A DNA stretch of 64,000 nt, taken from assembly GCF_045037415.1 (NCBI RefSeq), contig NZ_CP173438.1. One strand, given 5' to 3'. Positions 29,034 to 32,000 of this stretch are shown here, piece after piece. Position 1 is the stretch's first letter. Each line of letters opens with the position of its first letter. Made by a program: the position numbers. Source of the stretch: Escherichia coli. GTDB lineage: Bacteria > Pseudomonadota > Gammaproteobacteria > Enterobacterales > Enterobacteriaceae.

Positions 29034-32000
29034 TAAGATTTATGATGCCTCCCACGAAAGTGGGAGGTTTTTTATTTAACCCGCCTTTTGCGCAATACTG
29101 TCCAGCGTTGCCAGCACGTCATCCGTTAGCACTAATTCATCGGACGCCATATTCTCCCGCAGATGCCCCACCGAAGAGGTGCCAGGAATCAGCAAAATAT
29201 TCGGTGAACGCTGTAACAGCCACGCCAGCGCCACCTGCATTGGTGTCGCATTAAGGCTTGTAGCAACATCGGAAAGCGTGGAGGATTGCAGCGGCGTAAA
29301 GCCCCCGAGCGGGAAGAACGGCACGTAGGCAATGCCATCACGAGCCAAAGCATCAATCATTGCGTCATCAGCACGGTGGGCAATGTTGTATTCGTTCTGC
29401 ACGCAGACGATTTCGGCAATCTTTCGCGCCTCTGCAACCTGCGTCGGTGTGACGTTACTCAGGCCAAGATGTTTTACCAGACCTTGTTGTTGCATCTCCG
29501 CCAGCACTGTCAGGCTGGCCTCAATCGATCCTTCCGCTGGGCCATGACCATCCCCCATCATAACGCGCAGGTTAACCACATCCAGTACGTCCAGGCCGAG
29601 ATTACGTAGATTATCGTGTACCGCTTTTTGCAGCTCTGCCGGAGAAAATGCGGGTAACCAGGATGCGTCCTCTCCACGCCGCGCACCAATTTTAGTGACA
29701 ATTGTCAGGTCGTCAGAGTAAGGATAAAGCGCTTCGCGGATAATCTGATTGGTGACGTGCGGACCATAAAAGTCGCTGGTATCAATATGATTGACGCCCA
29801 ATGCCAGCGCCTCGCGCAGCACGGTTATAGCGACGTGGCGATCTCTTGGGGGGCCAAAAACCCCAGGACCAGCCAGTTGCATCGCGCCATAACCAAGACG
29901 GTTAACGGATTTTGTACCGAGAGTAAATGTGTTGCTGCTCATCGCACCCTGCCCTGTAATAAAACGGATTAAGAAAAATCAGTATAGAAACGAAAAGAGA
30001 TAAATAATGCGAGGGTGTAAACAAGATTGCGGGATGAGTTGTACTGTTGCCCTGAAAGACACGAAACCCCAGGCAGGTTAAGACACGTCAAGCACCGCAT
30101 CCGGCAATAAAAAAACCGCAACCTGTATCAGCGTTGCGGTTTATGCATTACATGCTAAAAATTAGAACGTTTTCTTGAAGTTTAGCATCACACCTTTATC
30201 ACTGATGCCGTCTTCTTTCCAGTGGAATGCATCTACCTGCAACGCACTTTCCTGGCTGCTGTATTTCACACCCATTGTCGCCAGGCTGTTGAAACCACCA
30301 CCATTCTGACCATCATCAATGTTGAAACGCTGGCTTCCCGCGCCCGAAACGCTCGCAGTTCGCTGGCTTTTCACATAGCTCAGGTTCGGGCCGCCTTCCA
30401 GCGTGGCGTTCGCACTCCAGCCGTCCTTACCGGCATAGTCCAGTTTCAGCCCAACAATGCTGTCCACTGCCGTTTCGCTACCGCTGTTCATGCTCAGGTT
30501 AAAGTCACCCGCATTGCGTTCCTGATAGCCACCCTCCAGTGTGTGACGCAGTTTAACCCCGGCATATGGCGTGACGTTCAGCCCTTCACGCAGCTCAAAG
30601 GTTTTCGCCCCTTCACTACGGAACTCCAGGTACTGTTGTTTCACATTAGCATCGGCTGTTTTATTGATATCGCCGTACGCTACCGAGCGGCTGCTGTCGA
30701 GCTGGTGCACATCATAACGCAGGGCGTTATTCCAGTTCATACCGTTGTCAAAGGCCATCTGGTGTTTCAGACCGAAGAACTGGCTGTAACCGCCTGTCAC
30801 TCCGTTATCGCCTGCGGTATCTGAACCATTACCCTCCAGACGCGCAATCCCGTATTCCAGACTCAGGTTCTGATGTTCAGTCAGCGTCAGAGATTTACGC
30901 AGCGCCATCATGTCGTACTGTGTGTCGTTACCCAGTTCAGCACGCGGGTCGCCTTTCGCTACCACGTTGAAGGCCAGACCGTTTGCGACTTCCGGTGCTG
31001 CATCGGACAACATGCTGAAGCGGTTACTTAACACTCGTGCTTCATTGAATACCGTTGTTGCCTGGCTGCCGCTGACCTGTTTCAGCGCACTGTTCAGTTC
31101 CGCCGTGGTGCCTACGTTCAGGCTGCTGTACAACTCGTTGTTGGTATAGCCCGCATCCAGTACCTGCGCGACGGTGTTAACAGATGAATCTGTTGCTACA
31201 TCGGTGTAGGCATTTTTAGTCATCGTGACATCAACGTTGCCGCTGGCGTCAGTAGTGCCTTGCGCGTTCCATACCACAGAGGTCGATGTAATCGTCTCTG
31301 CGTCGGTCAGATTACTGCCCTGAACGACGTTGTCGAAGGTCACGGAGGTGGAGCTGGTTCCAGCCGTAAATCCGGTGTTAACAGAAACCCCTTTCAGGCT
31401 TGCATTGTTCACTTTCAGCTTGCCGGCACTGCCGTCAGAACTGGTTCCTACAACATAACCATTCAGTTTGTTCTGGCTTCCGTCACTGGACGGGGTGCTG
31501 GCCGCAACAGAAACCGACGAGCCAGGTACATCAGGCAAAGTGTAATCAGCATAATGCACTTCGCTATTGTTACCGTTATTGCCGTTCACACCTTCAATGT
31601 TAACGCTGTCACCTTGCTTGATTAGCCCGGAACCTGTCACTCCATCGGCAATAGTCACTGTGCCGTTGTTCACGAGGTGGCCTACGGAACCCAACATGCT
31701 AAATGCAAAGGAGTTGTTGGCGTAAATGTTGATGGCGCCATTGTTCTCAATGACCGCATCAGCTGTCGTGCCGCTGTCCAGTTGCATCCCGATCATGCCC
31801 GTGTCGGTCGTGCCCGACGTTCCGAGGTTGATCGTGCCGTTGTTAACCAGTCGTGCGTTTTTATCCCCTTCCATCGCAATAGCGTTATTACCGCTAATAT
31901 TCATGGTGCCGTCATTCTGCGCAACGTAATTGCTGTGAATGAATTTCACTGCAACGCCGCTGTCTTTATCAAAATTGACGACCCCATTGCTCTGGTTCCA

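Follow-up and report, generated by a model that had tools for sequence, protein, structure and literature searches.

In the Escherichia coli DNA analyzed here, a 64,000-nt stretch of contig NZ_CP173438.1 (RefSeq assembly GCF_045037415.1) that is called the window throughout, the convergent genes azoR and pdxI (= ydbC) are separated by only 39 bp, whereas E. coli K-12 carries ynbD, ynbC, ynbB, ynbA and ydbD between them. This short junction probably represents the unoccupied allele of a variable segment, which has retained the ancestral azoR terminator and has been swapped with the occupied allele by recombination. The 39-bp spacer would then be the ancestral Rho-independent terminator of azoR that closes the hrpA-azoR core block, and the window would carry the "unoccupied" form of the segment. 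In K-12 and most E. coli, the alternative allele has ~7.3 kb in place of window positions 29037..~29192, which span the terminator and the final ~117 nt of pdxI. These ~7.3 kb comprise an AT-richer, divergent tail of pdxI, a separate terminator for this gene, the genes ydbD and ynbA-D, and, behind azoR, a hairpin unlike that of the window. Homologous recombination, with crossovers located in azoR and pdxI, is the most likely way in which the alleles were exchanged.

The azoR-pdxI Junction and its Hairpin

AzoR matches the Pfam family Flavodoxin_2 (E = 7.9e-53), and residues 15-284 of PdxI align with positions 1-290 of the 291 positions of the Aldo_ket_red model (coordinates are listed in Table 1). 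The open reading frames (ORFs) and the computed fold bear out a preliminary description of this locus, according to which azoR and ydbC converge with 39 bp and one strong hairpin between their stop codons and without ydbD-ynbABCD genes in the interval. The same 39-bp azoR-pdxI spacer is found in strain EC958 (O25b:H4, sequence type 131 [ST131]), whose AzoR, PdxI, and HrpA protein accessions are identical to those of the window and which differs by one mismatch in 37,316 bp over the first 37.3 kb (99.997% identity). Strain SK1144, which has been assigned to phylogroup B2 (PMC12366417), is nearly identical to the window as well, but EC958 is closer. The window chromosome is thus of the ST131 type and belongs to phylogroup B2.

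The hairpin, GCCTCCCAC-GAAA-GTGGGAGGT followed by TTTTTTATTT, starts 10 nt past the azoR TAA and has a stem of 9 bp with six GC pairs. In a 56-nt context its minimum free energy is -18.7 kcal/mol (z = -4.1), and none of 200 shuffled sequences was as stable. It is not a repeated element of the window, where the 22-mer is single-copy even if up to three mismatches are allowed, and an Rfam scan of positions 28200-30200 at E <= 1 matched zero families. Hallmarks of an intrinsic terminator for azoR are present, namely a GC-rich stem-loop, a U-tract directly 3' of it, and a covarying stem (see below), and a consensus terminator scan called it on the plus strand. We infer that the hairpin is a canonical intrinsic (Rho-independent) terminator at which azoR transcription would end in vivo. 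It shares with such terminators the GC-rich 9-bp stem, the tetraloop, and the T-run immediately 3' of the stem. The sole oddity is that the T-tract overlaps the convergent pdxI stop codon: that codon is complementary to the 3 nt at the end of the tract, and the end of pdxI lies 7 nt from the hairpin.

Full-length RNA profiling of E. coli has reportedly revealed bidirectional terminators between convergent genes, and the preliminary description had regarded the hairpin as such a shared terminator. The window likewise has one hairpin, the sole structure between two convergent stop codons, and the hairpin of the minus strand RNA is equally stable; on this strand an A-run that mirrors the azoR U-tract precedes it. 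A U-tract exists in the azoR direction only, however. The RNA of the pdxI direction continues after the stem with CAUCAUAAAUC, which is poor in uridine (2 U in the first 8 nt), because the plus strand lacks the upstream A-tract that would supply a U-tract for pdxI, and no terminator was found when the minus strand was scanned. In addition, pdxI of K-12-type genomes has a canonical terminator of its own (AAAGGGAAA..TTTCCCTTTTTTTC), and in other genera the hairpin trails azoR regardless of the gene downstream. It is therefore rather unlikely that the hairpin truly terminates both genes, although it may stall transcription or stabilize the 3' end of the pdxI transcript despite the missing U-tract. 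The azoR-pdxI hairpin of Kluyvera intermedia, unlike that of the window, has an A-run and a T-run on both sides.

Conservation of the Hairpin in Enterobacteriaceae

Around AzoR, 80 Enterobacteriaceae loci were retrieved, a set that does not include E. fergusonii, E. marmotae, and E. ruysiae. A hairpin with the CCTCCCAC/GTGGGAGG core, or a compensated variant of it, is located 7-11 nt past the azoR stop codon in 50 of these. In the outgroups a T-run usually follows it, and the TAAGATTT that precedes the hairpin of the window often recurs at this place. The genera concerned are Citrobacter, Enterobacter, Klebsiella, Raoultella, Leclercia, Kosakonia, Phytobacter, Pluralibacter, Yokenella, and Superficieibacter, to which Salmonella arizonae has to be added. 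Among 20 distinct variants from 51 loci, double-sided changes affect five of the eight stem pairs, a result matched by none of 500 shuffles and not approached in any slid register; that all cells are paired is an inflated measure, because the hairpins were pre-selected for at least seven of eight pairs. These figures are based on register-anchored extraction, as MAFFT and RNAalifold applied to the raw 44-nt segments past the stop codon gave an alignment out of register (consensus -1.1 kcal/mol).

Downstream of the outgroup hairpin follow ydbL-ydbH-ldhA, paaYXK, a GFA-family gene, pdxI, a six-gene ynb cluster, or other genes. Since these neighbors vary so widely among species, the hairpin can be assigned to azoR, and it is best regarded as the edge of an hrpA-azoR core block conserved in Enterobacteriaceae. 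The family-wide conservation of hairpin and T-run behind azoR argues that the spacer is ancestral sequence and not a deletion scar.

The first 6 kb past azoR contain 145 ORF clusters in the 80 species, and azoR abuts ydbL-ydbH-ldhA in many genera. The segment from ydbL to azoR in K-12 (~35 kb) looks like a region that is variable throughout the family.

Comparison with the K-12-Type Allele

The genes that flank the junction of the window (hrpA, azoR, pdxI, and ydbA) also flank the corresponding K-12 region, ydbC(pdxI)-ydbD-ynbABCD-azoR (b1406-b1412), with unchanged orientations. As stated in the preliminary description, azoR and ydbC are not adjacent in K-12, and the order of the five genes between them was also given correctly; its estimate of about 6 kb for the interval was too low, since 7,173 bp lie between the two stop codons. 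All five genes (in the order azoR, ynbD, ynbC, ynbB, ynbA, ydbD, pdxI) are co-directional with pdxI. Besides lacking them, the window differs from K-12 by the hairpin behind azoR, by the C-terminus of PdxI, and by its ydbA-like autotransporter gene, which is intact in the window and an IS-disrupted pseudogene in K-12 (IS, insertion sequence).

The left boundary between the alleles is sharp, as they diverge directly past the azoR stop codon, while azoR itself shows 98.7-98.8% identity when the window is compared with the two ynb-bearing B2 strains that were examined. The K-12-type sequence beyond this point, CCGGAC...GATGTGGACTG-loop-CAGTCCACATC, is unrelated to that of the window, and among the loci examined the GATGTGGACTG..CAGTCCACATC hairpin occurs only in E. 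coli and E. albertii. In K-12 (locus L001, 3764-3816) this azoR-ynbD hairpin has a folding energy of -21.3 kcal/mol and a T-run on neither side. From its sequence, the K-12-type azoR thus appears to have lost a canonical intrinsic terminator and to have received in exchange a hairpin that lacks a U-tract.

The right boundary lies within pdxI, where the divergence stops at about 29192-29259. The window and the B2 strain APEC O18 show 38 differences from 29079 to ~29192 and only sporadic ones further on. Nucleotides 1-750 of pdxI in the window are 98.4% identical to APEC O18 and 95.6% to K-12, but the last 117 nt are only 66.7 and 67.5% identical, respectively, which does not exceed the values between genera. 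On the protein level, PdxI has 288 aa in the window and 286 aa in K-12, with 98% identity in the body and 48% in the last 27 residues. The GC content of the K-12-type block is 46.7% (ydbD 43.5%, ynbB 43.6%), compared with 52-54% in the flanking genes hrpA, azoR, and pdxI, and that of the pdxI tail is 40% in K-12 and 51% in the window. The block thus has the atypical base composition expected of a mobile island. On the other hand, no integrase, transposase, or IS genes are annotated within the K-12-type 7.3-kb block, and a search for direct or inverted repeats flanking it found none, which makes homologous exchange the likely route. Since the alleles differ in the terminator as well as in the final ~117 nt of pdxI, what separates them is a replacement of ~156 bp by ~7.3 kb and not a clean insertion.

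Distribution of Alleles in E. coli

In a census of 5,426 complete E. coli genomes, ynbB-ynbC DNA was present in 4,606 and ydbD in 3,991, whereas azoR and pdxI are contiguous in 788. These comprise exactly the 642 genomes with an intact window-type junction and 146 with a second, scar-type junction. The window-specific spacer plus pdxI tail was detected in 646 genomes, 572 of which have it at >=99% identity. The named carriers of the window type that were recognized or checked are B2 strains (ST131 EC958 and E2348/69).

At least five structural alleles exist at this locus. The long allele is that of K-12, with ynbDCBA and ydbD between azoR and pdxI. In the medium allele, found in B2 strain APEC O18 and similarly in FDAARGOS_1255, ynbDCBA are kept and a ydbD remnant that includes the 5' end remains in a 298-bp intergenic region. 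The short allele is present in the window, EC958, and SK1144, and E2348/69 has a variant of it with ISEc13 in the hairpin loop. Finally, the scar allele (RIVM_C037884 type) has a 113-bp spacer in which the K-12-type hairpin and ~70 bp of the ynbD 3' end are joined to a K-12-type pdxI stop. As in the window, azoR and pdxI are adjacent in the scar allele and the ynb genes and ydbD are missing, but its K-12-type hairpin, ynbD 3' end, and K-12-type pdxI tail are all lacking in the window. Comparison with the K-12 azoR-ynbD and ydbD-pdxI intergenic regions revealed neither ynbD or ydbD remnants nor K-12-type junction sequence in the window spacer. True deletion derivatives, by contrast, keep remnants of ynbD (the scar type and E. 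albertii) or of ydbD (the medium allele of B2).

In E2348/69 (locus L003, 10440-12010) the element inserted in the loop of the azoR hairpin, at the equivalent of window positions 29053-29062, is an IS4-family ISEc13 with a target duplication of ~9-10 bp (CACGAAAGT[G]); the arms of the stem are now 1.5 kb apart.

Age and Origin of the Two Alleles

Judging from their distribution, both alleles are old. Past azoR, E. albertii NBRC 107761 (locus L006, 6736-7001) has the K-12-type hairpin and then ~100 bp left over from the ynbD 3' end, which directly abut the 3' end of ydbD; the contig stops 266 bp past azoR, and the pdxI side lies outside it. In this species ynbABCD appear to have been deleted and ydbD kept. 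Since E. albertii has this decayed copy, the occupied allele predates E. coli. The short layout occurs in locus L005, which is labeled E. coli and whose hrpA is ~91% identical to both E. coli and E. albertii. Its hairpin is a variant of the ancestral one with compensatory changes, and its PdxI has 288 aa and ends with ...LATLDSIAKKAG. Moreover, azoR and pdxI, with or without an intervening GFA-family gene (gfa), are also neighbors in C. amalonaticus, Kluyvera, and Enterobacter sp. kpr-6. We infer that the spacer of the window is ancestral and the K-12 junction derived. As the window junction holds ancestral sequence that is missing in K-12-type genomes, it cannot have arisen from a K-12-type junction by deletion.

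These results modify the options that the preliminary description had considered. Its view of the junction as an empty site stands insofar as the spacer is apparently ancestral, free of remnants, and thus no deletion scar, but it does not stand in the sense of a clean insertion site, since a replacement separates the alleles. An insertion gained by K-12 is not supported as a K-12 event, as the occupied allele is present in 4,606 of the 5,426 genomes and predates the species. Equally, loss of the block by plain deletion conflicts with a spacer and a pdxI tail that K-12-type genomes do not contain.

Besides the selection that inflates the pairing measure, several points weigh against the proposed polarity. 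Firstly, other B2 strains (APEC O18 and FDAARGOS_1255) and E. albertii carry alleles derived from the long one, and by parsimony the occupied allele would be ancestral for E. coli. Secondly, the C. freundii complex, K. spallanzanii, Phytobacter, and Superficieibacter have a six-gene ynb cluster next to azoR and have kept the ancestral hairpin; an older ancestor may hence have possessed ynb genes, and the short allele could be the product of a very old clean deletion. Thirdly, the pdxI tail was considered as a polarity marker and rejected as too weak on its own, because the tails of the two alleles diverge from each other as much as from those of other genera (~67% identity) and the window tail is closer to the outgroups by a small margin only (identity to the C. 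amalonaticus tail is 71.8% for the window and 68.4% for K-12, with a range of 65.8-68.4% for the K-12 type). Three origins of the short junction are compatible with the data: continuous inheritance, re-acquisition from another Escherichia lineage, and a much older clean loss of a ynb cluster.

Re-acquisition is a possibility to be taken seriously, if not the favored one. The B2 ancestor would have had ynbABCD, and the short allele would have entered the ancestors of ST131, E2348/69, and NC101-like strains from another Escherichia lineage on a short homologous-recombination tract. For the window strain this would amount to a loss by way of an imported ancestral-type allele; it is a sub-scenario of the explanation given above and does not exclude it. 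Both alleles are found within B2 on flanks that are otherwise 98-99% identical, hrpA is visibly mosaic, and the short allele is present in the divergent lineage L005. The right-hand breakpoints differ among B2 strains (~29211 in FDAARGOS_1255 and ~29259 in APEC O18), which suggests more than one exchange and thus repeated recombination. No donor was found, however. The spacer and tail of L005 are only ~70-81% identical to those of the window, and the persistence of both alleles from an ancestral polymorphism accounts for the same data.

A very old clean deletion is improbable. It would require that the common ancestor of Escherichia and Citrobacter had a Citrobacter-like ynb cluster past the ancestral azoR terminator, that the short allele lost the cluster and kept the terminator, and that the K-12-type allele is a separately remodeled descendant. 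The arrangement azoR-hairpin-(133-aa membrane protein)-ynbD-ynbC-acyltransferase-ynbB-ynbA in at least five genera and the single ynbA homolog near azoR in Salmonella arizonae would fit this scenario. However, identity to the Ynb proteins of E. coli is only 56-78% in these genera, compared with ~96% for HrpA and ~91-93% for AzoR, many genera have neither ynb genes nor pdxI at this place, several others have azoR-(gfa)-pdxI, and the window spacer contains no remnant. Still less probable is a long-lived trans-species polymorphism in which selection has kept both alleles in Escherichia. Simple deletion of ydbD-ynbABCD from a K-12-type arrangement in the window lineage is extremely unlikely: although the occupied allele is that of the E. 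coli majority and of other B2 strains, is found decayed in E. albertii, and deletions do occur at this locus, K-12-type genomes do not contain the ~156 bp of spacer and pdxI tail, the window has no ynbD, ydbD, or K-12-type hairpin remnant, and a deletion could not create a spacer that matches the family-wide azoR terminator.

Six-gene ynb clusters are located 0.3-6 kb past azoR in the C. freundii complex, K. spallanzanii, Phytobacter, Superficieibacter, and LSJC7. They contain two genes that are absent from ynbABCD of E. coli, one for a PlsC-type acyltransferase between ynbC and ynbB and one for a 133-aa membrane protein without Pfam match after ynbD.

Other Features of the Window

Downstream in the window, positions 30162-38678 of the minus strand encode an intact YdbA/BigA-like autotransporter of 2,838 aa; in K-12 its gene has been split by both IS2 and IS30 and survives as a pseudogene. 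The repeats of the window gene (34706-38012) consist of ~11 tandem units of 294 bp (98 aa), with an 87-bp difference between SK1144 and the window within the array. Between the autotransporter gene and ydbL (39756-40082) the paa/feaRB/tynA cluster is wholly missing, and only remnants of paaY and of a helix-turn-helix gene are left at 39006-39584; E2348/69 has a deletion in the paa region that resembles this one without being identical to it. The decayed genes of the window in Table 1 follow the annotation of the near-identical SK1144 record.

Table 1. Features of the azoR-pdxI junction and decayed genes in the window.
Feature	Position	Strand	Description and evidence
azoR (FMN-dependent NADH-azoreductase)	28431..29036	+	201 aa; ORF list, RefSeq annotation of the identical SK1144/EC958 genes
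azoR-pdxI spacer, stop to stop	29037..29075	.	39 bp; sequence not in K-12-type genomes
Predicted azoR terminator hairpin	29047..29068	+	9-bp stem, GAAA loop, conserved core CCTCCCAC/GTGGGAGG
Predicted azoR terminator T-tract TTTTTTATTT	29069..29078	+	sequence, terminator scan
pdxI (= ydbC; pyridoxine 4-dehydrogenase / pyridoxal reductase)	29076..29942	-	288 aa, intact; ORF, RefSeq annotation
Allele-specific 3' tail of pdxI	29076..29192	-	mismatch map, identity matrix, protein tails
hicB	4877-5113		truncated
trg	18499-18942		truncated
Integrase gene beside ttcA	52820-53050		remnant
dgcM	57254-58486		frameshifted
MFS efflux gene	59324-60779		frameshifted
abgT	63105-63248		remnant

Significance of the Missing Genes

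Strains with the window allele are devoid of the DUF2773 protein YdbD and of a non-essential set of four predicted lipid enzymes, namely the CDP-alcohol phosphatidyltransferase YnbA, the CdsA paralog YnbB, the hydrolase/methyltransferase YnbC, and the PAP2/dual-specificity phosphatase YnbD. YnbB is non-essential and has only an auxiliary role in the synthesis of the glycolipid MPIase (PMC6362211), and the existence of natural ynb-null lineages is consistent with such a role. No literature naming at least three of ynbA-D was found with those genes in title or abstract.

The absence of these genes from the junction is an ordinary, old gene-content polymorphism that is already known and visible in annotated public genomes. 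What is added here is the identification of the spacer as the probable conserved azoR terminator, the recognition of a replacement that includes the PdxI C-terminus, and the allele census. The genes ynbABCD and ydbD, which have been studied in K-12, are accessory, as about 15% of the complete E. coli genomes, among them the pandemic ST131 lineage, do without them, and PdxI occurs in two C-terminal forms. In addition, a conserved terminator can serve to distinguish an ancestral unoccupied junction from a deletion scar. If the polymorphism were under selection, the lack of ynb genes or the different PdxI tail in the ST131 lineage would affect the supply of envelope glycolipids or the salvage of vitamin B6.

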